Shown here piece by piece: positions 6,823 through 21,297 of a stretch of 22,445 nucleotides of DNA; positions within the stretch are counted from its first letter, which is position 1; each line of letters begins with the position of its first letter. Both the position numbers and the translations under genes were made by a program. The stretch is taken from the NCBI GenBank assembly GCA_937910235.1, contig CALENB010000151.1, forward strand, positions 1 to 22,445. Direction: 5' to 3'. The notes under the pieces are model-generated. The model did not search any database and was not told the origin of the DNA. It saw nothing but the letters and a program-made list of their open reading frames with translations. The DNA comes from an uncultured Myxococcales bacterium (GTDB lineage: Bacteria > Myxococcota_A > UBA9042).

Positions 6823-7194
6823 ATGAGTCGACGCACCACACAGCGCTCCGCGATCTGCGCCGCCTTTGAATCCGCCGCGCGTCCGCTGAAACCAGACGAG
6901 GTGCTCGCCCTGGCGCAGCAAGTGGTGCCGGGGCTGGGCGCGGCGACCGTGTATCGCAACCTCCGCCGACTCACCGAGGACGGCTGGCTGCGCGTTGTGG
7001 CGCTGCCCGGCGACGCGACGCGGCTGTACGAACGAGCCGGGCTCGCGCATCACCATCATTTCCATTGCGACCGCTGTGACCGCGTCTTTGACGTGCACGT
7101 CTGCCCCGGGGATCTAGGCAAGCTCGTGCCGCCGGGCTTCGCTGTGACGCAGCACGAGTTTGTGCTGTACGGGAGCTGCGCCGACTGCAACTAG
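6823..7194 (+). CDS. zur: Fur-family metalloregulator (Zur-like by genomic context)
   Basis: Winged-helix region with the conserved ATVYRNLRRL motif, followed by HHHHFHCDRCDRVFDV and a C-terminal CADC metal site. Assignment to Zur rather than Fur or Mur is an inference from the adjacent znuACB-type operon. Confidence 0.85.
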   Translation: MSRRTTQRSAICAAFESAARPLKPDEVLALAQQVVPGLGAATVYRNLRRLTEDGWLRVVALPGDATRLYERAGLAHHHHFHCDRCDRVFDVHVCPGDLGKLVPPGFAVTQHEFVLYGSCADCN

Positions 7195-7284
7195 CCGCCA
7201 CGCATCGCCGATGCTCCATCGCCCCGCGGGCGGGCCATACGGATGCCATCTCCTAACTCTTTGGTTCTATTTACCGCGCACGCC

Positions 7285-7325
7285 ATGCTTGCAAATGAGA
7301 AGCAGTTATCATTAATGTTCGCCAT
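7285..7325. promoter_or_regulatory. AT-rich Fur/Zur-box-like operator candidate between the Fur-family gene and the OMP-znu operon
   Basis: ttgcaaatgagaagcagttatcattaatgttcgcc is a conspicuous AT-rich island in GC-rich DNA. It contains the perfect palindrome CATTAATG and a TTATCATTAAT core that matches the Fur-box half-site ATCATTATC at 7 of 9 positions. It sits immediately 5' of the likely OMP start codons at 7315 and 7324. Confidence 0.35.
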
Positions 7326-8676
7326 GCTCGACGCCTACCGACACAGTCTCCACCCCCGCGCCGCCCGCCAATCACTGGCTGTGGCGCTCCTGATCGGGTG
7401 CGTCGTCGCGTCGCCGCGGTGTCATGCCCAGCCCACACCGCCGCCGCCGCCGCCGCCGCTGGCGTCCACGGCGCAACCCTCGCCAGAAGAACAGCGCCTG
7501 CTGCGGGACAGCTTGCAGGCCGATCGTCGCGGCCAATCCGCCAGTGGGACGGTCCCAAACGCCGCGTCGCTCCCGGCGGGCACCGGCGGGCCGGCTGCCT
7601 ATCGAAGGCAGTCGCTCGCGACCGTCATGAACCCGAACATCTCGCTCATTCTCGATGTAGCCGCGGGCTGGTTCTCGGTCGAAAAGCCGCTGCAGGCCGG
7701 CGCGCATGACCCAAACAAGACTGGCTTTACCCTGCAACAACTCGAGCTACACCTGGACGCCGCGGTCGACCCATATTTTGAGTTGCAAGCCAACCTCGTC
7801 TTCACCGAGGAGGGCGTTGAGGTAGAGGAGGCCTATGCACGCACGCTCTCCCTGCCCGCTGCGCTGCAGCTGCGCGCCGGACAGTTCTTCACCCGGCTTG
7901 GGCGCACAAACGCGACGCATCCGCACACCTGGAACTTCGCTGACCAGCCGATCGTCAACGGTAAGATGCTGGGAGGGGATGGACTGCGCGGAGTCGGCGC
8001 CGAGCTGTCGTGGCTCAGCCCCTTGCCCTGGTATGCGGAGGTGGTCGTCAGCACGCAGATGGGCACTGGCGCCTGCTGCGCCCGCAGCTTCTGGGGCGAT
8101 CAGGCACAACCGGTGCGCACCCCGACGGACCTGATGCAGCTGGCGCGGCTTCAGCAGTTCTTTCCCCTGAACCAGGATTGGAGCGTGTCGTGGGGCTTGT
8201 CCGCCGCCACGGGACCCAACGGCTCAGGCGTCGGGACCGCGGGCCTCGCGACGTCGGACGACGTCCGCACCGATCTGTGGGCGACCGATCTCTACGTGCG
8301 CTACCGCCCGGTGGCGAACCGCGCGCGCGTCGCGTTGTCGTGGCAGACCGAGGCGATGTTGCGCCGTCGCCACGGAGGCGATCGTGTGCTTCAAGACTGG
8401 GGCGTCACCTCCGAGCTTGTGTGGCGCTACGACTTGCGGCACGCCGCTGGCATCCGTGTGGAGCACGTGACCGGCGTGGTGGACGACCCCCTGGATCCCG
8501 ACTGGACCGGGGCCCGACAGCGTCTCACGGCGCAGTGGACGCTGTTCCCCTCCCATTTTTCACGGCTGCGCTTTCAGACCAGCGTCGACCAGCCATCTTG
8601 GCGCTCAAAGCCGATAATCGCGGCGTTTGTGGCGCTTGAGGTGCTGATCGGCGCCCACGGCTCGCACGAGTTTTAG
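7315..8676 (+). CDS. outer-membrane beta-barrel protein (putative metal-uptake porin) in operon with znuACB
   Basis: The track ORF starts at 7243, but the signal-peptide-like stretch (RAARQSLAVALLIGCVVASPRCHA-QP) begins after the internal ATGs at 7315 and 7324. A poly-Pro linker follows (PTPPPPPPP), then alternating amphipathic beta-strand-like sequence. The C-terminus is ...EVLIGAHGSHEF with a terminal Phe, typical of OM beta-barrels. The downstream znuA start is 10 nt after the stop with a strong SD. Confidence 0.65.
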   Translation: MFAMLDAYRHSLHPRAARQSLAVALLIGCVVASPRCHAQPTPPPPPPPLASTAQPSPEEQRLLRDSLQADRRGQSASGTVPNAASLPAGTGGPAAYRRQSLATVMNPNISLILDVAAGWFSVEKPLQAGAHDPNKTGFTLQQLELHLDAAVDPYFELQANLVFTEEGVEVEEAYARTLSLPAALQLRAGQFFTRLGRTNATHPHTWNFADQPIVNGKMLGGDGLRGVGAELSWLSPLPWYAEVVVSTQMGTGACCARSFWGDQAQPVRTPTDLMQLARLQQFFPLNQDWSVSWGLSAATGPNGSGVGTAGLATSDDVRTDLWATDLYVRYRPVANRARVALSWQTEAMLRRRHGGDRVLQDWGVTSELVWRYDLRHAAGIRVEHVTGVVDDPLDPDWTGARQRLTAQWTLFPSHFSRLRFQTSVDQPSWRSKPIIAAFVALEVLIGAHGSHEF

Positions 8677-8685
8677 GAGGTTCAG

Positions 8686-9654
8686 ATGCGCTTCATCGGC
8701 AGCTCTCACCGACACCCAGGCCTACGGGGCGCCGTGGTTGTCGCCTTGGTCGTCGCCGGGATCGCGGCGCCGTCCGGATGGGCCGCCCCTTCGAAGATCG
8801 CGCCGGCGCTGCAGATTGTCGCGACCCTCCCCGATCTGGCGGCGCTTGTGCAGGCGGTAGGCGGCCCCCACGTTCACGTGACCGCCTTGGCCGCACCCAA
8901 CCAAGATCCCCACTACGTCGACCCTCGACCGAGCCTGATGTTGCCGCTGTCCCGCGCACATCTGCTCGTCGTCAACGGTCTGCAGCTGGAGCAAGGCTGG
9001 CTTCCGCCGCTGATCCGGGGTTCCCGCAACAGTCGCATCCAGCCGGGCACCACTGGGCACCTCGACGCGTCGTTTTTTGTGCAGAGGCTGCAGGTGTCGA
9101 CCGCCCCGCTCAGCCGCGCCATGGGGGACGTGCATCCCGGTGGCAACCCGCATTTTGTCTGTGATCCGCGCGCCAGCGCCCGCGTCGCTAAGGCGATTGG
9201 CGAACGGCTGGCCCAGTTGGACCCCGCGCACGCCGCCGCCTATCTGGCCCAGACGACGGCGTTTGTGGCGCAGCTGACGGCCATCGCCAAGGCCCAGCGG
9301 AGCCGCTTCGCCAAGCTGCCTGTGCCCAGGCGGCGTATTGTCAGCTACCACCGCTCGTTGCCCTATCTGCTCGATTGGCTGGGCCTGCAGGAGGTGGCGA
9401 CCGTCGAGCCGCGACCGGGCATCCCGCCGAGTCCGGCGCACACCGCGACCGTTCTGACCACGATGCGGCAGCTGGGCGTGACCGTGCTGGTGCAGGAGGA
9501 GTTCTACCCGCGCCGCGTCAGCCAGACATTGGCGAAGCTCGTGAAGGGCGCCGTCGTCGTGCTGCCGGGCGGAGCCCGCTTTGACCGAGGAGAGACCTAT
9601 GTCGCCCGCCTCCAGCGCACGACCGCCGCGCTCTACGCTGCCCTCGGTGGCTGA
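8686..9654 (+). CDS. znuA: metal (Zn/Mn) ABC transporter periplasmic substrate-binding protein, ZnuA/TroA family
   Basis: AGGAGG 6 nt upstream of the ATG. Signal peptide (AVVVALVVAGIAAPSGWA). Conserved cluster-9 SBP features (DPHYVDPRPSLMLPLSRAHLLVVNGLQLEQGW; HPGGNPHFVCDP). Confidence 0.9.
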   Translation: MRFIGSSHRHPGLRGAVVVALVVAGIAAPSGWAAPSKIAPALQIVATLPDLAALVQAVGGPHVHVTALAAPNQDPHYVDPRPSLMLPLSRAHLLVVNGLQLEQGWLPPLIRGSRNSRIQPGTTGHLDASFFVQRLQVSTAPLSRAMGDVHPGGNPHFVCDPRASARVAKAIGERLAQLDPAHAAAYLAQTTAFVAQLTAIAKAQRSRFAKLPVPRRRIVSYHRSLPYLLDWLGLQEVATVEPRPGIPPSPAHTATVLTTMRQLGVTVLVQEEFYPRRVSQTLAKLVKGAVVVLPGGARFDRGETYVARLQRTTAALYAALGG

Positions 9655-10396
9655 GGTCGCGCCGACGCTGGTGACGCTGGACGCGCTGCGTCCAGGCTAT
9701 GACGGACGCGCCTTGCTGCCGCCAGTGAGCCTGCGCCTCGTCGCTGGCGAGCTGTGGGCGCTGGTCGGTCGCAACGGCGGCGGAAAGACGACGCTGATGC
9801 AGACGCTCCTCGGTCTGCAGGCGCCGGTCTCTGGCGCTGTCACGCACAAAGACGGCCTGCGGATGGCCTACGTGCCGCAGCGATTACGCTATGATCTCAG
9901 TGTTCCGACGCGCGTCACCGACTTTGTGGCGGACGGGTTGGAGACCGGGTGGCGTTTTCTCAACCCCTTTCGGAGCGCCCAGCAGCGGGCCAGCGTGGCG
10001 GAGGCGCTGCGCGACACGGACCTTGAAGCCATCGCGCTGGCGCCCCTGAGCGCGCTCTCGGAGGGACAGAAACAGCGAGTGGTGATCGCCCGCGCTTTGG
10101 TCACCCAGCCGCACCTGATGGTGCTCGACGAGCCGACGAGCGCGATGGACCCCGTCAACGAGCGCCAGATCCTCGGGTTGATCGCCGGGCTCTCGCAACA
10201 GCGCGCCATTGCGGTGATGATCGCGAGCCACCACATGCGCGCCTTGCCGGACTTCGCCCAGCACGCCCTGCTCGTCGACAAAGACCTCGGCATCGCCCGC
10301 GCTGGTGGTCTGCGGGAGGTGTTTCAATCGGCTGAGTTTCGCCGCATCTACGGAGATCCGCCGCTCGGCGCGCAATCGGAGGCGCAACGTGCTTGA
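9599..10396 (+). CDS. znuC: metal ABC transporter ATP-binding protein
   Basis: Walker A GRNGGGKTTL, ABC signature LSEGQKQRVVIARAL, and Walker B LMVLDEPTSAMD. The ATG at 9599 has GGAGAG upstream but overlaps znuA by 56 nt. An alternative in-frame GTG at 9671 lies 17 nt after the znuA stop. Confidence 0.85.
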   Translation: MSPASSARPPRSTLPSVAEVAPTLVTLDALRPGYDGRALLPPVSLRLVAGELWALVGRNGGGKTTLMQTLLGLQAPVSGAVTHKDGLRMAYVPQRLRYDLSVPTRVTDFVADGLETGWRFLNPFRSAQQRASVAEALRDTDLEAIALAPLSALSEGQKQRVVIARALVTQPHLMVLDEPTSAMDPVNERQILGLIAGLSQQRAIAVMIASHHMRALPDFAQHALLVDKDLGIARAGGLREVFQSAEFRRIYGDPPLGAQSEAQRA

Positions 10397-11264
10397 GGCC
10401 GCGCCCACGCTCGACCAGTTCATGGACGGTTGGGAGCTCTTTGCCGACCCAGCGCTGACCGGCGCGGCCATGGGCATGACCCTCGGTGTCGTCGGGGTCT
10501 ACGTCGTCGTCCGCCATCTCGTCTTTCTCAGCGCCACCCTCTCGCAGGCCGCCAGCCTGGGGGTCGCGCTGTCGTTTCTCGGCCGCGGCTTGGGGCTGCC
10601 CGCGTGGCTGATCTCACCCACCCTCGGCGCCGCGGTGGTCAGCCTCGGCGCCGTCAGCCTTTTTGCCCGCCCGCTCCGACGCCCACACGCCCGCGATGAC
10701 GCCACCCTCGGCCTGCTGTACCTCGTCGGCGCCGCGGGCACCTTGGCCGTGGGGACCCGCGTTGTGCAGGATCTCGCCGACATCCAGACCCTGCTCTTCG
10801 GCACTGCGGTCGCCGTGTTGCCGGAGGATGTGCACCTCGTGTTGTGGACCTGCGCTGGCGTCCTCGCGCTCCACGCCTGGTGGTGGCGCGGCTTTGTGGC
10901 GACGAGCACCGACCTCACTGGGGCCCGCGTGCGGCAGCTGCCGGTGCGCTTGATCGACCTCACGCTCTTTGTGACGCTCGCGCTCAGCGTCTCCGTGTGT
11001 ACGCGCGTGCTCGGCGCGCTGCCGGCCTTCGCCTTCTCGGTGCTGCCCGCGCTGGGCGCGCTGCGGCTCGCCGCCAACGTGCCGCAGGCGCTGCTGTGGG
11101 CCGGCGGTCTGGGCGCGGTCATCGGCTTCTCCGGCTACCTAGTGGCCTTTCTGTGGTCCCTGCCAGTCGGCGCGAGCCAGGCGCTTGTGGGCGCCGCGCT
11201 GGTGGCGGTGACGTACGCGATTAGCCCGATTTTGCGCCGTTTCCGTCAGCGCCACCTCGGCTGA
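10389..11264 (+). CDS. znuB: metal ABC transporter permease (ABC-3 family)
   Basis: Multi-pass hydrophobic protein. GTG at 10389 overlaps the znuC stop (GTGCTTGA), a classic coupled start. The track ORF extends upstream to 10305 but that stretch is Arg-rich and non-membrane-like. Confidence 0.8.
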   Translation: MLEAAPTLDQFMDGWELFADPALTGAAMGMTLGVVGVYVVVRHLVFLSATLSQAASLGVALSFLGRGLGLPAWLISPTLGAAVVSLGAVSLFARPLRRPHARDDATLGLLYLVGAAGTLAVGTRVVQDLADIQTLLFGTAVAVLPEDVHLVLWTCAGVLALHAWWWRGFVATSTDLTGARVRQLPVRLIDLTLFVTLALSVSVCTRVLGALPAFAFSVLPALGALRLAANVPQALLWAGGLGAVIGFSGYLVAFLWSLPVGASQALVGAALVAVTYAISPILRRFRQRHLG

Positions 11265-11522
11265 AGCGCGTCGGATCGCGCCACTGCAGGGCCGCGTTCT
11301 CAGGCCAAGTTCGGCACGACCCAACGTCACCACCCGATCAGTTTTTGTCCTCGGCCACCGTCTGACGGCTATGTTCAATTCACAGTACTGCCGCAGCCAC
11401 GACGATGCGCTGGCATCCCGAGCGCTGACCGATGGAGCGGGTTCGCCGGTTTGTGGCCGAGCGATCGCCGCGATCGTGCGCGCGGTCCACACACAGCAGC
11501 CGACGGGGAGGAGCGCCGACAC

Positions 11523-12668
11523 ATGGAACGTGAGCACAAAAGAGTCGGGTCCGTTGCGCTCGTCTTGCTGGGGGTGGGCGTCGTCATCCTCGCGGCTGAT
11601 GCGGCGACGGGTCGCCAGCGCCTCGGGCTGCCTCCGGTGCCGGTGCCGGCCGACAACCAGATCACGCTCGCCAAGGTGGCGTTGGGTCAGAAGCTATTTG
11701 AGGACAAACGGTTGAGCGCCACGGGAGAGGTGTCCTGCGCGACGTGTCACGATCGTGCCAAAGCCTTTACCGATCATCGCAAGACCTCGCTCGGGATTCG
11801 CCAGCGCGCCAGCTTGCGCAACGCCCCAACGCTGATCAACGCCGCGTTCAACACGACCCAGTTCGGGGATGGCCGCTCACCGAGTCTGGAGGATCAAGCC
11901 CTCCATCCCTTTCTCAATCCGGTGGAGATGGGACTGGAGAGCCACGCCCCGGTCTTGCAGCTTGTCCGCACCGATGACGTGTACGTCGAAGCCTTCAAGG
12001 TGGCGTTTGGCAAGACCGACACAGCGATCACCATGAAGGAGGTCATTCAGGCCATCGCCACCTTCGAACGCACGCTCATCGCCGGCAACTCGGCGTTTGA
12101 TCGCTACTACTTCGGCCAGCAGAAGTCCGTGCTCACAGCCGCGCAGAAGCGGGGTCTCCGCGTCTTTCGCAACAAGGGCCGCTGCGTGTCGTGCCACGTC
12201 ATCGAGCAGACCACCGCGCTGTTCACCGACCACCAGTTCCACAACATCGGCGTCGGTATCCACAACATTCAGAACGACCTGCCGCGGTTGGTCGGCGAGT
12301 TTCTGAAGACGAAGCGGACCATGGCTGAGATCGACATCAACGTGCTCAGCGACGCCAAGACCTCGGAGCTCGGCCGCTTAGCGGTCACGCGCTCGTTTGA
12401 GGACATCGGGGCGTTCAAGACACCAACGCTCCGCAACGTCGCCTTCACCGCGCCCTACATGCACGACGGCTCCATCAAGACCCTGCGCGAGGCGGTTGTT
12501 CACCACAACAACGGCGGCGTGACGCGAAAGGGCGACAAGGTCAACGCCTACTTGAGCGGCGGCATCCGGCCGCTGGCGCTCACGAAGCAGGAGATCGACG
12601 ACTTGGTGTCGTTCATGGAGGCGCTGACGAGTCCAATGGTGACGCGGGGCGCCAAACGGGGGAACTAG
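11523..12668 (+). CDS. di-haem cytochrome c peroxidase (CcpA/MauG family)
   Basis: GGGAGG upstream of the ATG at 11523. Signal peptide. Two CxxCH motifs (CATCH, CVSCH) with the spacing and flanking motifs of bacterial di-haem CCPs (NAPTLINAAFN...QF..DGR; FKTPTLRNVAFTAPYMHDGS). The stop is 3 nt before the next start. Confidence 0.9.
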   Translation: MEREHKRVGSVALVLLGVGVVILAADAATGRQRLGLPPVPVPADNQITLAKVALGQKLFEDKRLSATGEVSCATCHDRAKAFTDHRKTSLGIRQRASLRNAPTLINAAFNTTQFGDGRSPSLEDQALHPFLNPVEMGLESHAPVLQLVRTDDVYVEAFKVAFGKTDTAITMKEVIQAIATFERTLIAGNSAFDRYYFGQQKSVLTAAQKRGLRVFRNKGRCVSCHVIEQTTALFTDHQFHNIGVGIHNIQNDLPRLVGEFLKTKRTMAEIDINVLSDAKTSELGRLAVTRSFEDIGAFKTPTLRNVAFTAPYMHDGSIKTLREAVVHHNNGGVTRKGDKVNAYLSGGIRPLALTKQEIDDLVSFMEALTSPMVTRGAKRGN

Positions 12669-12671
12669 CTC

Positions 12672-13742
12672 ATGACATCTATCAACCGGCGCAGCTTCCT
12701 GACCAGATCTGCCGCGGCGATCGCAGCTGGGGTGGTGCCGATGAGCGTCGTCAAACTCGCCTACGCCGACGCGGCGCAAGACTTCTCATTCGCGTACATC
12801 TCCGATGCGCACATTCAGCACATCAAGGGCGGTCGGTTCGTCCGCAGCTGGGATCGCGGTCTGATCCGAGCCGTGGCCGAGACCAACCTGCTCTCACCCA
12901 AACCGGACTTCGTCATGTTCGGCGGCGACTTGGCGCACCTTGGTGGCCGCGCCGAGCTCGACCACGGGGCGGAGATCCTGTCTGCGCTCGGCTACAAGAC
13001 GCGCTACGTGATGGGTGAACACGACTACTACCTCGATTTGGGTCGGTATTGGTCGACGCTGTTTGGTCCGCAGTACTACGCTTTCGACCACAAAGGCGTC
13101 CATTTCGTGGTGCTCAACAGCATCCTCACGCACGAAAAGTGGACCCTGCAGCGCTGGCCTGACGCCAAGACGCGCATGCGTCAGATGGCCGCGCTCGACA
13201 ATCCCAATGGCTCGCCATTTATGGTCGGCGCGCCACAGCGGGCGTGGCTGCAGGCCGACCTGGCGAAGGTCAACAAGGCCACGCCGGTCGTCGTCTTCTC
13301 GCACTCCCCGCTCCAGAAGCTCTACAGAGGCTGGAACTTCTGGACCGACGACGCAGACGAGGTCCAGGCGCTGCTGCAGCCGTTCGACCACGTCACCGTG
13401 ATCTACGGCCACGTGCATCAAATCCAATACAACCAGATCGGCAACATCAGCTTTCACGCGGTGATGGCGACCGCTTGGCCGTGTCCGTGCCCGTCGACGT
13501 ACGCGCAGGCCAAGCGCGCCATGCCTGTGTTGACGGTGCCGATGAACCGGGCCGATCCGTTCCATGAGCGCGACGGCACCGGCTGGCAGTTCATCGACAT
13601 GAACAGCGGCAAGGTGGCGGCGAACTACACGCTCTACAACAACCCCTCGCGGCGCGTGGTCTGGAACCCGACGACGCGTCGGCCCGAGGACGCGGACTTT
13701 CAGGATCCAACCAAACAGGTCGAGCCGCAGAAGCACTACTAG
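12672..13742 (+). CDS. Tat-exported metallophosphoesterase (calcineurin/purple-acid-phosphatase-like)
   Basis: Twin-arginine motif NRRSFLTRSAAAIAAG. Metallophosphoesterase metal-ligand motifs SDAH, GGDLAH, GEHDY, VVFSHSP and GHVH. GGGGAA SD upstream. Tightly coupled to the flanking ccp and cytochrome c genes. Confidence 0.85.
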   Translation: MTSINRRSFLTRSAAAIAAGVVPMSVVKLAYADAAQDFSFAYISDAHIQHIKGGRFVRSWDRGLIRAVAETNLLSPKPDFVMFGGDLAHLGGRAELDHGAEILSALGYKTRYVMGEHDYYLDLGRYWSTLFGPQYYAFDHKGVHFVVLNSILTHEKWTLQRWPDAKTRMRQMAALDNPNGSPFMVGAPQRAWLQADLAKVNKATPVVVFSHSPLQKLYRGWNFWTDDADEVQALLQPFDHVTVIYGHVHQIQYNQIGNISFHAVMATAWPCPCPSTYAQAKRAMPVLTVPMNRADPFHERDGTGWQFIDMNSGKVAANYTLYNNPSRRVVWNPTTRRPEDADFQDPTKQVEPQKHY

Positions 13743-13753
13743 GGGAACGCACC

Positions 13754-14167
13754 ATGAACAAGACCGACATCACGTTCGCGCTGGGCGCAGCGAGCCTCGT
13801 CGCCCTCGCCGTCGGGGCCACGGCGGACGCAGACAACTTCACCAAGCCGGACATCCGGCGTTGGACGAGCGAGTACCTGACGGTCGTGCAGCAGGGTCGC
13901 GCGTTGTGGGGGAGCCCCAAGCTGGGGACCAACGGCGTGACATGCGGGCAGTGTCACCCCAACGCCGCCAACACGCACCCGGAGACGTACCCGAAGTTCC
14001 AGAAGCAGCTCGGCAAGGTCGTGCCGTTGCGTGAGATGATCAACTGGTGCTTACGCAACCCGCTGAAGGGCAAGCCGCTCGCGTACGATGACCCGACGAT
14101 GATCGCGATTGAGGCCTACGTGACGCACGAACGACGCGGTGTGCGGTTGGCGCCAGGCAAACACTAG
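13754..14167 (+). CDS. mono-haem c-type cytochrome (periplasmic)
   Basis: Signal peptide MNKTDITFALGAASLVALAVGATADA and a single CGQCH haem-binding motif. The start lies 11 nt after the phosphoesterase stop with GGGGA upstream. Confidence 0.8.
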   Translation: MNKTDITFALGAASLVALAVGATADADNFTKPDIRRWTSEYLTVVQQGRALWGSPKLGTNGVTCGQCHPNAANTHPETYPKFQKQLGKVVPLREMINWCLRNPLKGKPLAYDDPTMIAIEAYVTHERRGVRLAPGKH

Positions 14168-14178
14168 CGCCGCGCGCC

Positions 14179-15021
14179 TCAGGGGCCGACGCAGGTGCCG
14201 CCGGCGCAGACCTTGCCGATAGCGCACAGCGAGCCATCGGGCGCGGGTTTGTGGGTGCAGCCGCCCTTGCCGTCACAGGCGTCGAATGTGCAGAGGTTCG
14301 TGTCTGCGCAGCCGATCACTGGCTTGCTGGCGCACGTTCCGGCGGCGTCACAGCTGTCGTGGCCCCACGGGTCGGTGCGAATAACGCGGATTTGTGGGCC
14401 TGCAGTTGTCTGCACTGCGCCGAGCAACGCCAGCGAGCCATCTGCCCAACGGTCGAGCGCGCGCGCCGTCGGCAACGACATGGCGGCCAAGTCGGCGTTG
14501 TGTTGCGTGTTCCAGATGGGGTTGCCCGCGCCGTCCGTCCCCATCAGGCCGAGCACGCCGACGCCGCTCACGCTGAGCTGGTTGGCCATCACGAGCCCTG
14601 TTTGCGTAGCGATCACGGAAGACCACTTGGACCCCGTCGGGCTGACCTGCTCCAGCAGCACCTTGCCGGATTCGTTGACCAGCATCGCCCACGGGATCTT
14701 GAATCCCGGCGCGTACGTGGCTTGGCCGCTCAACACGGTGCCGACCGAGGCCAGCGCTGCGCCGAGCACGGTGACGGGGTACTTCGCCTTGACGATGACG
14801 TTCGCCAGGACCAGGCCGCCCGCGCTCAGCAAGGCGACACGCACGGTCTTCTCGTTCGCCACGAGTGACGCCGCGATCAGCACGTGGCCGCTCCCGTTGG
14901 TGCTGAGGCGCGCGTTGCCCTGTATCGCGCCGGTCGCGCCGAGCGCAGCCGTCGGCCAGACCGCGGCGCCGTCGCCGTTGATGCGCTGCACACGCAACGC
15001 CGTGTCAAACCACGCGACCAC
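14179..15021 (-). CDS. C-terminal segment of the Cys-rich repeat protein (second beta-rich module plus DPWGHDSC Cys-knot tail)
   Basis: Same frame as the upstream piece. It begins at a GTG 24 codons after the TGA at 15094-15096 and ends RTDPWGHDSCDAAGTCASKPVIGCADTNLCTFDACDGKGGCTHKPAPDGSLCAIGKVCAGGTCVGP, paralleling the RADPWGRDSC... module upstream. Confidence 0.5.
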   Translation of the reverse strand: MVAWFDTALRVQRINGDGAAVWPTAALGATGAIQGNARLSTNGSGHVLIAASLVANEKTVRVALLSAGGLVLANVIVKAKYPVTVLGAALASVGTVLSGQATYAPGFKIPWAMLVNESGKVLLEQVSPTGSKWSSVIATQTGLVMANQLSVSGVGVLGLMGTDGAGNPIWNTQHNADLAAMSLPTARALDRWADGSLALLGAVQTTAGPQIRVIRTDPWGHDSCDAAGTCASKPVIGCADTNLCTFDACDGKGGCTHKPAPDGSLCAIGKVCAGGTCVGP

Positions 15022-15093
15022 CGCGTCACCGCCAGTCGCGGCGCCGATGGCGTCATGGCCCCAGGTCTTCTGCTTCGGATCGGCGTCCCAACT

Positions 15094-18000
15094 TCACATC
15101 GCTTTTCCCTCGAGATCTCGGCGTTGCAGCGTCGCGTGCGGGTAAGTACCGCCGCTGGTCACATGGCCGAGCACCGCGATGTCACCGCCGATCGGCGCGA
15201 CCGCGACGGCGCCCAAGCCTGCGCTCCCCACCGGCAGCGTGACGGAATCGGTCGCGACGCCAACCACGCCGCCGCTGTCCGAGATCCGCACGCTGACGTT
15301 GTTGGCGTCCGCGCCGCGGCCCACGACAGCCACGCCGCCATCCGGGAGCGTCGCGATCGCTGCGACCGACGTCACGCCTGGCACCGCCACCGTCTTGGCG
15401 TAGAGCAACGTTGCCTGTCCGGCGTTGCAGGTCGCCCCGCTGCAGGCCCCGTCGAGGTGGCACGCGTCGCCCGGTTTGCACAGCAGCCCCGGCGGCGCGG
15501 CGTGAAAGCAGCCGGTTGCGGCCGAACAGAGGTCGAGGTTGCAGCTCTTGCCATCTGAGCAGTCGTAGTACGCCTTGTCGCCGCACGCGCCGGAAGAAGC
15601 GCAGCTGTCACGTCCCCAGGGGTCGGCGCGCACGTACCAAGACTCCTCCTTGCCGCCGCCAACCGCCTCGCTGTAGCCCGCGAAAAACAACCTGCCGTTC
15701 GCCAGCACACCGACGGCCGTGGCCACGTCTCGCCGGCCCGGCTCCATCGGCGGATTGCGGACCCACTCCAAGTTGCCTTGCACGTCGAGCACGCCGAGGT
15801 ACGCGCGATTCGCGTACGACGGATCGTGAAAGCTCCCCGCGAAGACGACGGCGTCGTCGCCTCGGGTGACGAGCGAGTTGAGCTCACTGCCAACGGGGCT
15901 GGTGATCTGGCGCGCGAGCACCCCGGAGGCGTTGGTCATGACCGCCCACGCGTACGGGTAGCCATTCACGCGGTTCGCGCCGGCCGCGGCGAACGTGCCG
16001 GAACTGGTGACCGCCACATCGTTCAACCGCCCGTCGTTCGCCGTGACGAAGCGTCGCTGCCACAGCAGCTTTCCAGCCTTGTCGTGACGAAACAGCCACC
16101 CGTTCCGCTGTCCGGTTGTCCCCGTCCAGCCGCAGCCGACCGTGCCGCCATCGGTCCCCACACGCTTCAAGGACAGGGGCATCGCCGACTCCGTCGTCGG
16201 GATCAGGTAACGCCACATCGGGTTACCAATGAGCGTCGTGCGTCCGATGAAGGGCTTCGCGCCGCCGGTCTTTGTCACCTCGGCGCCAACCCACGTCGCG
16301 CCACCGTCGGCCTGGCCAGCCACGCCGCCCGCCCGCGCGTCCTTGGTCAGATCCCCAATCACCTTGGACCAGTTCGTGCCGAGGCCGACGTCGACGTGAT
16401 AGAGGAACAGGGCCCGCTTGTCGTCCTTGTACGCGGTGTCGCCGACGAGCGAGACCACCGTGCCGCCGTTTGAAGACAGCGCGGTGACCTCAAACGTCGT
16501 GTCTGGATACGGCGGCGGGGCGAGGTTGCCGCTGGAGATCTGACCGTTCGCGTCGGTCACGAGCAGCCAGCCGTAGCGCGTGCTGGTCTGGTCTCCCTTG
16601 ACCCCTGTCCACGCGATGCCTGCCATCACCGCCGAGCCGTCCGCCAGCGTGACCAGGTCGGTGATCCGGCTGCGGAGCCCAGGAACCGGCTTCTTCGTGT
16701 ACGTGCCGGCCTGCAGGCGCCGGTGAAAGAACGCCGCGTGGCCCGCGCCGCTGCACGTGCCTTGTGTGCACTCGGACGCCAGCGAGCACGCGTCGTCGTC
16801 GTCACACGCCGCGCCGTCACTCGCAGGCAGCACGACACACGTGAACGAGGTCGGACCCTGCGAGAGGCAGCTCGCCACCTGGCACGCCTTCACCGCCTGG
16901 GTGCAGATGACGCTGTTACCCGTCGCGCAGACGCCGTCTTTGGTGCACGTGTCATTCACCGTGCAGCCGGAGTTGTCGCCGTTGCAGACCTTGCCCTTCA
17001 TCGCGTCGGCGTCCCCGTCGCACTTGCCCGTCTTCGTGTCACAGCTGTCCACCGTACACGCGTTGCCGTCGTCGCAGCTCTTCGCCACGTGCATGCAGCC
17101 AGCCGGCGTCTTGCAGCTGTCCACTGTGCACTCGTCGCCGTCGTCGCAGTCGGTCGGTTGGTTGCCCTTGCAGCCGCCGAGCCCGTCGCACGTGGTCCCC
17201 GCTGTGCAGACGTCGCCGTCCTCGCACGGACTGCCGCCCTTGTTCGGTTGCAGTCCGCACACGCCGGACTTGCCGTCACAGCTGTTGGTCAAACACGCCG
17301 TGTTACCGAGCGGGCTGCAGAACACCTTGCTCGCCGGGTTAAAAACACATTTCGGGACTTTGAGGGACTTGTCGCAGTAGAAGATGCCGTTGCAGAGGTC
17401 ACCGTCGTCCTCCTTCTCGCAGTCCGCGTTCTGGGTGCACTCGCAGATGGCCGCCGCGCTCTTGCAGGCCTTGCCCTCGCACACATCACCCGTCGTGCAC
17501 GCGTTGCCGTCGTCGCACTTGAAGGGACCCTCATCGCCCTTCTGGCCCACAATCTTCGGCTGCCAGGCGCAGTCCTGCCCTTTGTCGCCGGTACAACTCA
17601 GCACCGCGTCGGCCCGCGCGACCTGGGTGCACGTGCCTTCTTTGGGCAAACACACCGTCTTCGCGCAGCCCGTGTCGTCCACCGTCGGGCAGACCACCAC
17701 CGACGCTGGATTGGGCGCGCACTGGCCTGTGGCTTTGTCGCAGAACGCGATGCCGTTGCACTTGTTGCCGTCGTCCTTGTCGGCGCAGTCGCTGTCTTTG
17801 GTGCACGCACACAGGTAGGTGCCCGCTTGGCACAGACCGCCAAGGCAATGATCGCCGCTGGTGCAGGCGTCGCCGTCATCGCACGCCGTCGTCGGCGGGG
17901 CCGCGGCGGGCTGGCAGAGCCCGGTCGCCGGGGTGCAGGCGCTCGTCGTGCAGGCATCCGCGCCGCCTTTGGGGCAAGTGACCACTGTCGCCGGGTTGAC

Positions 18001-18312
18001 CTTGCACACCGGCGGCTTCGCCGCGACGTCGCAGTACAGCGTGCCGTTGCAGGCGTCGCCGTCCTCTTTCTTAAGACAATCCGCGCTCGTCGCGCACGTG
18101 CACACGTTGTCGCCGCCGGGCGCGCAGACCCCGGATTTGCAGGCGTCGCCTACCGTGCAGCCATCGTCGTCGCTGCACGCGCTGCCGTCCTTGCTGGCGA
18201 CCTTCGCGCACGTGCCGGTCTTGGGCTGGCAGACCGAGTCTTGACACGCCGCGCCGCTGTCGCCGCAGACCACGATCGTCACCGGGTTGATCTTGCACCG
18301 GAACGGAAACAC
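15094..18312 (-). CDS. central segment of the Cys-rich repeat protein (about ten Myxococcales-type Cys-rich repeats plus a beta-rich module and a DPWGRDSC Cys-knot)
   Basis: The open frame actually continues upstream to 18465 without a start codon; 18312 is only the first in-frame GTG. Repeats of the form C-x-D-D-G-[DN]-x-C-T-x-G-D-x-C and CExDxDCxKEDDGDxCNGxxYCD with NPA[ST]VVxC spacers, similar to TIGR02232-type myxobacterial Cys-rich repeats. Confidence 0.6.
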   Translation of the reverse strand: MFPFRCKINPVTIVVCGDSGAACQDSVCQPKTGTCAKVASKDGSACSDDDGCTVGDACKSGVCAPGGDNVCTCATSADCLKKEDGDACNGTLYCDVAAKPPVCKVNPATVVTCPKGGADACTTSACTPATGLCQPAAAPPTTACDDGDACTSGDHCLGGLCQAGTYLCACTKDSDCADKDDGNKCNGIAFCDKATGQCAPNPASVVVCPTVDDTGCAKTVCLPKEGTCTQVARADAVLSCTGDKGQDCAWQPKIVGQKGDEGPFKCDDGNACTTGDVCEGKACKSAAAICECTQNADCEKEDDGDLCNGIFYCDKSLKVPKCVFNPASKVFCSPLGNTACLTNSCDGKSGVCGLQPNKGGSPCEDGDVCTAGTTCDGLGGCKGNQPTDCDDGDECTVDSCKTPAGCMHVAKSCDDGNACTVDSCDTKTGKCDGDADAMKGKVCNGDNSGCTVNDTCTKDGVCATGNSVICTQAVKACQVASCLSQGPTSFTCVVLPASDGAACDDDDACSLASECTQGTCSGAGHAAFFHRRLQAGTYTKKPVPGLRSRITDLVTLADGSAVMAGIAWTGVKGDQTSTRYGWLLVTDANGQISSGNLAPPPYPDTTFEVTALSSNGGTVVSLVGDTAYKDDKRALFLYHVDVGLGTNWSKVIGDLTKDARAGGVAGQADGGATWVGAEVTKTGGAKPFIGRTTLIGNPMWRYLIPTTESAMPLSLKRVGTDGGTVGCGWTGTTGQRNGWLFRHDKAGKLLWQRRFVTANDGRLNDVAVTSSGTFAAAGANRVNGYPYAWAVMTNASGVLARQITSPVGSELNSLVTRGDDAVVFAGSFHDPSYANRAYLGVLDVQGNLEWVRNPPMEPGRRDVATAVGVLANGRLFFAGYSEAVGGGKEESWYVRADPWGRDSCASSGACGDKAYYDCSDGKSCNLDLCSAATGCFHAAPPGLLCKPGDACHLDGACSGATCNAGQATLLYAKTVAVPGVTSVAAIATLPDGGVAVVGRGADANNVSVRISDSGGVVGVATDSVTLPVGSAGLGAVAVAPIGGDIAVLGHVTSGGTYPHATLQRRDLEGKAM

Positions 18313-18465
18313 CGATTTCTCGCAGTAGAGCGTGCCGTTGCACAGGTCGCCATCCTCCTGTCCGGCGCAGCTCAGCGTCTCGCTGCATTCGCAGAAGTTG
18401 GCGCTGCCCGTGGTGCATTTGCCCTTGAGGCAGTGGTCGCCGGTCGTACAGGGGTCGCCATCTTC

Positions 18466-18882
18466 TCACGCCGCGTGGCTGTTCTGCGGCTTGGCGACGC
18501 AAGCGCCCGTCTTGGGGTTGCACTGAGTAATGGAACAGATCCCATCGCTCGTGGTGTCGCAGGTCACCGCGCTGCCAGCCTTCAGACCGCATCGCCCCTT
18601 GGTGCAGGCCGGCACGCCATTGCACACGTCTCCGTCGTCGGCGCAGTCCGAATCGGTGACACATTCATTGGCCGTGTCCGGCGACGCCGTGTCTGCGCCC
18701 GCAGCGCTGTCCACAACGGTCGCGCTATCGAGGACCACGGTGGCGTCTACTTCGCCAACATCCGCGGCGGCGCCGTCGGTCGTCGTGCCGGAGACGGGAT
18801 CTGCCTCGGTGCATCCAGGCGACACGGCCAGGGCGAGGACCGCCAAGCTCAACACCAACAGCGCCAACGTGCGTCTCAACAT
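18466..18882 (-). CDS. N-terminal segment of the Cys-rich repeat protein (signal peptide plus first Cys-rich repeat), ending at an in-frame TGA
   Basis: ATG at 18882 with GGAGG at -9. Signal peptide. CVTDSDCADDGDVCNGVPAC...CNPKTGAC repeat. The track start at 18993 adds a non-signal-like extension. Confidence 0.55.
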   Translation of the reverse strand: MLRRTLALLVLSLAVLALAVSPGCTEADPVSGTTTDGAAADVGEVDATVVLDSATVVDSAAGADTASPDTANECVTDSDCADDGDVCNGVPACTKGRCGLKAGSAVTCDTTSDGICSITQCNPKTGACVAKPQNSHAA

Positions 18883-19115
18883 AGCGGTCATCCTCCAGCC
18901 TCCGGACCCGCGGAACGACAGCGAAACGCCTGACCAGACGACGCCTGTCGAACACGATAACGCTACTGTACACGATGGATGTTGGACCGCCACGGTGCGG
19001 GTTTACCGCGGCGTCGTGGGCGGCCGACTCGCGCGCCACCCCGGCGGCCGCCGCTCGCTCACAGGCCGGACCTACGGCACCGCAGCGGGCTTGTACGGCG
19101 ATGGCCGCGCGACGC

Positions 19116-19256
19116 CTAGTACTTCGTCCACACCGCGAGCTCGTTGCCGGCCGGGTCGCGGAACGTCCAGCCAAATGCGTCGCCATAGAACGACTTTAGG
19201 GTGTCGGTCCTGGCGCCGCTGAGTTCGATGTAGTCAACGCGGGCGATGGCGGTCAT
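19116..19256 (-). pseudogene. 46-aa remnant of a VOC/glyoxalase-family gene with the central ~70-80 codons deleted in frame
   Basis: ATG at 19256 with GGAG upstream (ggagactgcATG). Product MTAIARVDYIELSGARTDTLKSFYGDAFGWTFRDPAGNELAVWTKY joins the typical VOC N-terminal motif (VDYIEL...FY...FGW.F) directly to the typical C-terminal motif (F.DP.GN.L.VW), then stops. Too short for the ORF track. Confidence 0.4.
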
Positions 19257-19322: not shown

Positions 19323-21113
19323 CTAGAGGTTCTCGTCGCAGACCTTCTGAGTCTTGATGTCGAAGACCGAGGTCAACGCCTCCAGGAACTTGTTCGGATC
19401 GGCCGCGTCGATGCCCAGCAGCTTGCCGTTGCCGGATAACGCGAGGCTCATCGAGTTCTTGATGCTCGCTGCGCCGCTGATGTCGACGATGTGCACACGC
19501 ACGCCAAAAGGCTTGCCATCCGGCGAGCGCAGGACGTTGTGTGTCGGGTTGGTCGCGCACGCCGTCAGCGTAGACATGGGGTCCGCCACGCACTCCCCAG
19601 CGCAGAACGTCGCCTCGCCTGAGGCCGATCCCGGCAGGCAAGGCGCCATGCCTTTGGTGCAGTAGTAGCCGGTGACCGTGGTCTTCGGCAGGCACTTGCC
19701 GCTCTTGCAGGCGGTTGGGTTCTGCGTCGTGCCGCCCACGCAGTCGGCGTCAGATTGGCAGCATAAGCCATACGCCATCCGCTTGGCCTGCACCCAGGGT
19801 CCGAAGAAGTTCGAGGCGTTGTTGCTCTCGCCACCATCGGTAAACAACACCACGACCGTCTCGCGGCAGGTGCGGGCGACGTCCTTGCACTTGCCCGACT
19901 TGCAGCTGTAGTTGGCGTTGTCGCAGTCCCCATCTGTCTTGCAGAGCTTGCCGTCGATGACGACGCGGTTCTTGAGGTACTCCGCGACGTAGAACAGCGT
20001 CTTGCCGATGGGGGTGCCGCCAGTGGGCCGCAGCTCTGGGTCGGTGTGCACCCAGCACTGGCCTGAACAGCAGGTGCCCGCGCAGCCCGCCACCGGCTTG
20101 CAGACCGTCGAGCTGTTGGTGCAGGTGCCTTGGGCGCTCATCACCTCGGTGCCGTCCATCCACTTGGCGATCTTCTCCTTGGTCTTGAAGGCGCCGTCGG
20201 GTGGGAAACGCACACACATCGTCTCGTTGTAGGTCTGCCAATACCAGTTGGAGAGCGCCGTATCATCGACGAATTGCGCGTTGGAGGGGCCGGGGCTCAG
20301 CTCGCCGCTGAGCGCGCTCTGGCCTTGATAGAAGCCGTTTGCGCAGGTGCTGGTGGTCTTCTGGTAGAGCTTCTGTGGAAAACGAAACAGCGCCATCCGG
20401 GTCGCGTTGGCGTCGATCTTCTTGAGCGCCGCGGTGAAGACCTGCTTGGAGACGTCCATGCGACTGCAGCCCTTGGTCGGGTCACAGGTCGGCCAGGTTT
20501 GTCCGGTCGCCGTGCAGCCGGCGACCGCCGCGGTCATGGAGCCGGAGGTGTCAAAGGCGATGACGAGGTTGTTGCTCACCGGCACACACGCGCCGCCGCT
20601 GCAGGTGGTACCCGGAAAGCAGTTGCTCTCGATCCAGCCGTCTTCCAGCGCGCCGCAGGTGGCGAGCTTGGCGCCCGCGCATTGCTTCTCGCCTGCGTTA
20701 CAGACCTTCACCGGCGTCGTGTCCGCCGGACCGCCGTCGTTGGCGTCGACGCTGGTCGCATCGTTGGTGGCATCGCTGGTCGCGTCGCCGGTCGCGTCCC
20801 CTGCCGTGTCGCCGCCCACGCCGCCACCGTCCGCCGTCGGGCCCGCGTCGGTCGCGGCGTCCGCGCTTGTCGCGTCTGCCGCGTTGGCGTCGCTCGCGGT
20901 TGTGTCACCCGTCGGCGCGTCAACACCGCCCGAGTCGGCGACGTCGTTCAAGGTGCCGCCGGTGTCTTGCGCCGCGCCAGCGTCAGCGGCCGGGCCGGTC
21001 TCGTCAGCCGAGCAACCGAGCGCTCCCGCGGCCAACAGGACTGTCACGGTGATGCATCGGATGTGCAGGGCGTGCGCGCGGATGGCGAGCGTAGGCAAAT
21101 GAGGCGATCGCAT
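19323..21113 (-). CDS. von Willebrand factor A (VWA) domain lipoprotein with D/T/A/G-rich linker and Cys-rich N-terminal region
   Basis: ATG at 21113 gives MRSPHLPTLAIRAHALHIRCITVTVLLAAGALGC with lipobox L-G-C. The track ORF starts 28 codons further upstream at 21197. MIDAS motif in LVIAFDTSGSM and VVVLFTDGGES. Long low-complexity DATSADAATDAGPTADGGGVGGDTAGDATGDATSDATNDATSVDAND linker. Many Cys pairs. Confidence 0.85.
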   Translation of the reverse strand: MRSPHLPTLAIRAHALHIRCITVTVLLAAGALGCSADETGPAADAGAAQDTGGTLNDVADSGGVDAPTGDTTASDANAADATSADAATDAGPTADGGGVGGDTAGDATGDATSDATNDATSVDANDGGPADTTPVKVCNAGEKQCAGAKLATCGALEDGWIESNCFPGTTCSGGACVPVSNNLVIAFDTSGSMTAAVAGCTATGQTWPTCDPTKGCSRMDVSKQVFTAALKKIDANATRMALFRFPQKLYQKTTSTCANGFYQGQSALSGELSPGPSNAQFVDDTALSNWYWQTYNETMCVRFPPDGAFKTKEKIAKWMDGTEVMSAQGTCTNSSTVCKPVAGCAGTCCSGQCWVHTDPELRPTGGTPIGKTLFYVAEYLKNRVVIDGKLCKTDGDCDNANYSCKSGKCKDVARTCRETVVVLFTDGGESNNASNFFGPWVQAKRMAYGLCCQSDADCVGGTTQNPTACKSGKCLPKTTVTGYYCTKGMAPCLPGSASGEATFCAGECVADPMSTLTACATNPTHNVLRSPDGKPFGVRVHIVDISGAASIKNSMSLALSGNGKLLGIDAADPNKFLEALTSVFDIKTQKVCDENL

Positions 21114-21297
21114 GGGCTGTGTCCTCGTCGTGAGCCCCAGGTCCTGGAGCTGCTGCTGTGCCGCGAATGTGCCGTATTCCTGGGCCCTCCTGGGCATCGG
21201 AACGGCGACCGATCGGTAGCGTAGACGTTTCGTAGCGTCGCGTCACAAGTCATCGCACCACAAGCGCACGCCGCGCCGTGATCACCTAGCGGTCAGC

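Follow-up and report, generated by a model that had tools for sequence, protein, structure and literature searches.

Two in-frame TGA codons, one at a conserved cysteine, in a gene for a large cysteine-rich repeat protein from a Myxococcales bacterium

The disrupted gene and its surroundings

The window, by which we mean the whole stretch of DNA analysed, comprises 22,445 nt (positions 1 to 22,445 of the forward strand of contig CALENB010000151.1, assembly GCA_937910235.1). Its minus strand carries a disrupted gene whose full frame (14179..18891) holds 1,570 sense-equivalent codons and a terminal TGA at 14179-14181, as delimited by tblastn with the homologous protein P0002 (1,558 aa; assembly GCA_030425545.1). 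Residues 10-1558 of P0002 aligned to the window in a single frame (1,575 columns, 51% identity) that contained two stop symbols, and the same comparison detected no frameshift in the 4.7 kb gene. GC3 was 0.78-0.88 on either side of both in-frame TGAs. With the repaired protein as query, database searching found a 100% match limited to the middle fragment of the gene (P0001, 1,072 aa); the next best match after self was P0002 (53% identity by BLASTP), which stood out as clearly closer than the other homologues.

At its N-terminus the translation shows a signal peptide with a lipobox-like end, ...AVSPGC (Cys27; 18811..18891, minus strand), and the N-termini of the homologues are likewise hydrophobic and end in GC, AC or GGC; judging from these features, the product is probably secreted and lipid-anchored. 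The cysteine-rich region that follows (16732..18666, minus strand; about 640 residues) was defined by repeat alignment and Pfam and consists of five ~97-aa repeats, then shorter CDDG[DN]xCTxDxC modules; it holds eight C[EDS]D[GD][DN]xC sites. Beyond the repeats lies a long non-repeat part with a weak, below-cut-off resemblance to delta-60 repeats, and further short Cys modules make up the last part of the gene. The repaired protein matched Dicty_CTDC (PF00526) at 30.6 bits, above the Pfam gathering score of 27, and had no match in a sequence search of the PDB. It thereby resembles the Dicty_CTDC proteins that are expanded in Myxococcota MAGs, both in this match and in the CxDGDxCNG / CDDGDxCTxGDxC grammar of its repeats, and differs from them in that the copy described here is interrupted by two stops. 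Homologues of this type number in the thousands, measure 1,500-2,200 aa and come mostly from Myxococcales and Deltaproteobacteria MAGs.

Three minus-strand open reading frames (18466..18993, 15094..18312 and 14179..15021) share the frame of the gene, and three separate proteins have been called from them. The first called fragment (18469..18891), 141 aa long, covers the N-terminus including the signal peptide; it ends at the TGA in the gene tables of contigs L001, L003 and L005, and its protein cluster (P0123) is present on 11 contigs. The second (15097..18312) starts at an internal GTG, comprises 1,072 aa without a signal peptide and has 100% matches in P0001 and P0121, and the third (14182..15021) runs for 280 aa, also from an internal GTG, and matches Dicty_CTDC at 27.7 bits. 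We rejected the reading of these fragments as natural independent genes. The 1,072-aa and 280-aa pieces lack a signal peptide, and homology to the coding sequence of P0002 persists by tblastn through the 25 codons from the second TGA to the GTG of the third fragment; because these 25 codons are still homologous coding sequence, fragments 2 and 3 are not natural independent genes. Public MAG annotation thus lists as three neighbouring "genes" (141, 1,072 and 280 aa) what are pieces of one 1,570-codon gene, and protein clusters built from them are clusters of fragments. Long antisense open reading frames of up to 736 aa also lie opposite the disrupted gene (for example 16723-18933, plus strand); in GC3 they mirror the true frame, and they are by-products of high GC and third-position phasing, not genes.

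Upstream, on the same strand, the disrupted gene is neighboured by a gene (19323-21197) for a 624-aa, Cys-rich probable lipoprotein whose VIAFDTSGSM motif recalls a vWA/MIDAS site; Pfam gave no match to this protein at E<=0.001. On the opposite strand a convergent metal/redox cluster (6823-14167, plus strand) stops 12 bases short of where the disrupted gene ends. It encodes, in order, a Fur-family regulator, a 477-aa protein without a Pfam domain, a ZnuA-type binding protein, an ABC ATPase, an ABC-3 permease, a CCP/MauG di-haem peroxidase, a metallophosphatase and a SoxA/TsdA-type cytochrome c. Across the window, well-supported gene ends use TAG 7 times and TGA 7 times, a TAG share that seems high for a composition of ~67% GC in this small sample.

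The two TGA codons and their positions in the protein

The first in-frame TGA (codon 142; 18466..18468, minus strand) lies in the repeat region, where positions 18483-18445 of the minus strand read AAC AGC CAC GCG GCG TGA GAA GAT GGC GAC CCC TGT ACG. MAFFT alignment of the five repeats revealed 12 conserved Cys columns, 11 of them invariant in all five; the TGA occupies the twelfth, is matched by Cys in 4/4 other repeats and directly precedes the [DE]DG[DN]xC motif. The same column is Cys in 5/5 homologues from other organisms (P0002, P0005, P0007, P0016 and P0046). These alignments confirmed the claim of the preliminary description that the TGA replaces a conserved repeat Cys. The intact paralogous codon with which it had made the comparison is indeed TGC (codon 337; 17881..17883, minus strand, read as 17883-17881), within a repeat that reads ACG GCG TGC GAT GAC GGC GAC GCC TGC. 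Its proposal of a single third-position change from TGC to TGA was likewise supported by the closest homologue, in which HAACEDGDPC, with a TGC codon, stands against HAA*EDGDPC in the window.

The TGA at codon 142 had also been called the first in its frame, correctly, given that a second in-frame TGA occurs at codon 1266 (15094..15096, minus strand; 15096-15094 in reading direction). By tblastn this second codon aligns with a Trp (TGG) of P0002, the window reading GKAM*SWDADP and P0002 GDAVWTWKPAV. The column is occupied by T, Q, G or A in P0005, P0007, P0016 and P0046 and is not conserved, so that, in the comparison with P0002 and the four distant homologues, only the first of the two TGA sites is a conserved position. 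Each TGA differs from P0002 by one third-position base. The location of the second TGA at a Trp position changes the interpretation.

We then considered how surprising a stop at a Cys is in such a gene. Among its codons are 111 for Cys (93 TGC and 18 TGT), and the repeat part has hardly any Cys that is not conserved. One-step nonsense routes total 409, or one per ~35 possible substitutions, and 111 of these (27%) start from Cys codons, which form the largest class; because of this share, roughly one in four stops would be expected to fall on a conserved Cys. Trp codons account for 11% of the routes, or 18% when transitions are weighted double. Routes ending in TGA number 155/409, giving a probability of about 0.14 that two of two stops are TGA. 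Neither the Cys share nor this two-TGA probability calls for special explanation. The counts also carry a caution for selenoprotein screens: since UGA for Cys is the likeliest random nonsense outcome in Cys-rich repeat proteins (27% here), the pairing alone carries little weight.

Broken homologues from other lineages were absent from the results of the full-length search against 5.8 billion proteins, and the 141-residue N-terminal stub retrieved only itself as a query. Protein matches that end or start at the break all come from the same population. In tblastn across 75 homologous loci, which total 524 kb and come mostly from Myxococcales MAGs, no in-frame stop stood at a Cys position, and scanning these loci for stops with a Cys-rich, high-GC3 frame on either side returned the window alone. 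A scan of the genome collection, represented by species representatives, yielded just ~30%-identical, paralogue-like loci, again mostly from Myxococcales MAGs. As far as these comparisons reach, the first TGA appears to be private to one lineage.

Assembly error, code reassignment and selenocysteine

Five contigs (L001-L005, from analyses ERZ1283818, ERZ23486334, ERZ1283799, ERZ1283824 and ERZ23486278) were compared with the window. They are metagenome contigs that two pipelines assembled from different samples, match the window across the gene at 99.9-100% identity and fall into three SNP variants, and both TGAs are present in 5/5. Within the gene the contigs differ by 1-2 SNPs per comparison, two in all, one synonymous at D271 and the other S674R. 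They represent one near-clonal population, so their agreement is silent on evolutionary conservation of the TGA, and two SNPs are too few for dN/dS. What the contigs do address is whether the TGAs are sequencing or assembly artefacts, with C as the true base at the first. The region is repetitive, and in scaffold L005 a stretch of Ns interrupts the repeats. Against this, identical TGAs recur in contigs that differ elsewhere by SNPs, which makes random base-call error improbable, since such an error would not recur; the fragment proteins are recorded on at least 11 contigs, and the second TGA lies at a non-repeat site. Cys-rich repeats are hard to assemble, yet the first TGA site is in uniquely matching sequence, and its flanks are distinctive enough to match at 100% over 3.8-4.7 kb. 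The TGAs are unlikely to stem from base-call or assembly error, and an artefact at codon 142 in particular has scarcely any likelihood; both TGAs are fixed in the sampled population. The N run itself (4710-4809 of L005, in the Cys-rich repeats) is the source of a false database entry, P0122, a "protein" of 796 aa.

A reassigned code of the kind of translation tables 4 or 25, in which UGA would be sense and the gene intact, might be suggested by the fact that the gene has two in-frame TGAs, of which one falls on a Trp position. The usage of TGA in the window led us to reject it. TGA ends at least seven other well-supported, high-GC3 reading frames, after which GC3 collapses or a gene in another frame starts, and none of the other coding frames of the 22 kb window contains an internal TGA. 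The GC content of ~67% and the first TGA, which stands at a Cys and not at a Trp or Gly, likewise speak against reassignment, to which we assign a negligible probability.

Selenocysteine at codon 142, or Cys inserted through a Sec-like tRNA and SelB, would make the protein a selenoprotein with Sec at a repeat Cys position. The UGA aligns exactly with Cys in the paralogous repeats and in 5/5 homologues, is stably present in the population and is followed by a fully intact frame with coding-type GC3, much as bacterial selenoprotein genes such as E. coli fdhF, and the Cys/Sec pairs of metagenomic selenoproteome screens (PMC1088965), have an in-frame UGA at a homologue Cys and an intact frame downstream. 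Of the features that published selenoprotein screens look for, this alignment of UGA with homologue Cys is the only one seen in the gene. A bacterial SECIS, by the published criterion (PMC1088965), is a stem-loop that directly follows the UGA and has a small, G-containing apical loop. The preliminary description had reported no convincing SECIS-like hairpin in the downstream RNA, the string of which it had quoted correctly, as re-reading of the window showed, and had proposed folding the 60 nt past the UGA and comparing them with SECIS models. These analyses upheld its view. Rfam gave 0 hits at gathering thresholds over the whole window and no SECIS at E<=10 over 14900-18600, where the two matches were to a plant miRNA and an sRNA and were due to chance. 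The 69 nt from UGA-142 folded with an MFE z of -0.53 against dinucleotide shuffles, and the 60 nt after it reached -13.9 kcal/mol, the weakest value among the eight paralogous C[EDS]D[GD][DN]xC sites, the seven Cys-codon controls ranging from -16.0 to -26.8. Exhaustive enumeration of single hairpins in the SECIS range found a best structure of -7.2 kcal/mol with an interrupted stem and a loop, ACCAC, without G, compared with -12.3 to -16.1 kcal/mol for the top hairpins of four control sites with TGC; an approximate fdhF sequence from E. coli, folded as a positive control, gave -14.9 kcal/mol.

Selenoprotein screens moreover require a UGA conserved in at least two sequences and count single sequences just as candidates (PMC1088965). 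Here one population, represented by contigs of >=99.9% identity, carries the UGA, and the next relative has TGC. The 22-kb window yielded no tRNA-Sec or other tRNA in a tRNA scan and no Pfam domain of the Sec pathway. Residue 142 falls in one of the repeat's 12 conserved Cys columns, and the gene has 111 Cys codons; such a pattern is typical of structural disulfides, and residue 142 would probably not be an identifiable catalytic redox Cys. The locus thus differs from known bacterial selenoprotein genes in that no SECIS lies 3' of the UGA, no second sequence has the UGA, the Cys concerned is a repeat and probably disulfide Cys, and a second UGA stands at a Trp position, which Sec cannot explain. 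Selenocysteine at codon 142 is unsupported, and we regard the chance of a Sec-type decoding there as very slim.

Nonsense mutation and the possibility of read-through

We consider it likely that the gene, which encodes a giant secreted Cys-rich repeat protein of a Myxococcota-like bacterium, was recently inactivated and carries two nonsense mutations, each at a third codon position. One third-position C-to-A change would have converted TGC (Cys) to TGA at codon 142, and a third-position change TGG (Trp) to TGA at codon 1266; the direction of these mutations is suggested by one close and four distant homologues. Translation would then end at codon 142, leaving a 141-residue stub with the signal peptide, and the ~1,430 codons beyond it would stay untranslated, except where a near-cognate tRNA occasionally misreads the UGA. 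The premature stops lie in a frame that is continuous in the intact homologue, with TGC and TGG at the two sites in P0002/L006, and TGA works as a terminator at the ends of at least seven other frames. Where the preliminary description had favoured "nonsense mutation or base-call error", the first half is strengthened by the TGC homologue, the lack of a SECIS, the second TGA at a Trp, the normal use of TGA as terminator and the restriction of the TGA to one lineage, and the second half is made unlikely by the recurrence of both TGAs in five contigs.

In these respects the gene resembles other nonsense pseudogenes, which have premature stops relative to an intact homologue, more than one lesion per gene, a stop that is the normal terminator and changes private to a lineage. 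It departs from them in that its inactivation appears very recent, no frameshifts or acceleration were detected, and the two lesions are TGA alike. That the gene otherwise looks intact counts against a pseudogene. The homologue alignment disclosed no loss of another conserved Cys in the gene, and lineage-specific changes at conserved sites in the window and P0002 numbered 8 vs 14, 37 vs 45, 21 vs 23 and 59 vs 52, respectively, a relative-rate comparison that showed no excess and has little power at this divergence and for a recent event. By a rough estimate, it is only moderately likely (10-25%) that a second nonsense mutation precedes any frameshifting indel. The simplest reading of the intact frame is that the mutations are recent, which equally explains the lack of acceleration; both the loss of function and its recency are conclusions that we infer from these comparisons.

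Near-cognate misreading of UGA inserts Trp or Cys. The stops could accordingly be real and the gene still work at a low level, through misreading by tRNA-Cys and tRNA-Trp or through an organism-level UGA suppressor, with the TGAs as strong down-regulators. Both stops are third-position changes from codons for the very amino acids inserted by such misreading, and the rest of the frame is free of frameshifts and, by the weak test above, of accelerated change; as in known cases of leaky UGA termination by near-cognate tRNA-Trp and tRNA-Cys, the stops derive from those codon families and rare read-through would restore the protein. Here, nothing points to a programmed or efficient event, and neither a stimulatory structure nor a conserved context was seen. 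No promoting structure follows either UGA (z = -0.53 at codon 142 and -0.83 at codon 1266), the ends of at least seven neighbouring genes at TGA speak against an efficient general suppressor, read-through of one leaky stop after another would give very little product, and the intact frame is equally explained by recency. Low-level function of this kind is unlikely in our judgement, and some selection for the full-length frame through low-level read-through may nonetheless have acted. Decoding of both UGAs to give a full-length ~165-kDa Cys-rich lipoprotein, with Sec or Cys at 142 by a signal unlike SECIS and Trp at 1266, or by a general suppressor, is very unlikely. If it did occur, the stops would act as a translational throttle, and the gene would be a case of structural (disulfide-position) Sec or of SECIS-independent recoding in Myxococcota; a selenoprotein, or an instance of read-through, that lacks a recognisable SECIS would merit real attention. 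The gene is most likely an ordinary, recently broken one.

The gap separating the disrupted gene from its upstream neighbour of 624 aa holds a 46-aa open reading frame (MTAIARVDYIELSG...FGWTF...ELAVWTKY; 19116-19256, minus strand) with a weak Pfam match to Ble-like_N (E = 0.007, below cut-off). In translation it resembles the N-terminus of a protein of the VOC/glyoxalase/bleomycin-resistance type joined directly to the C-terminus, and it is probably what a deletion has left. It follows the TAG of the upstream gene in the same frame; we rejected it as a third instance of read-through, given the further in-frame stop between the two and its unrelated, VOC-like nature. This remnant weakly suggests some gene decay in the neighbourhood. 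On L003, a contig of 66.8 kb, an IS200/IS605-type Y1 transposase gene (PF01797; 5142-5543, minus strand) lies about 200 bases past the right end of the window and about 4 kb upstream of the disrupted gene.
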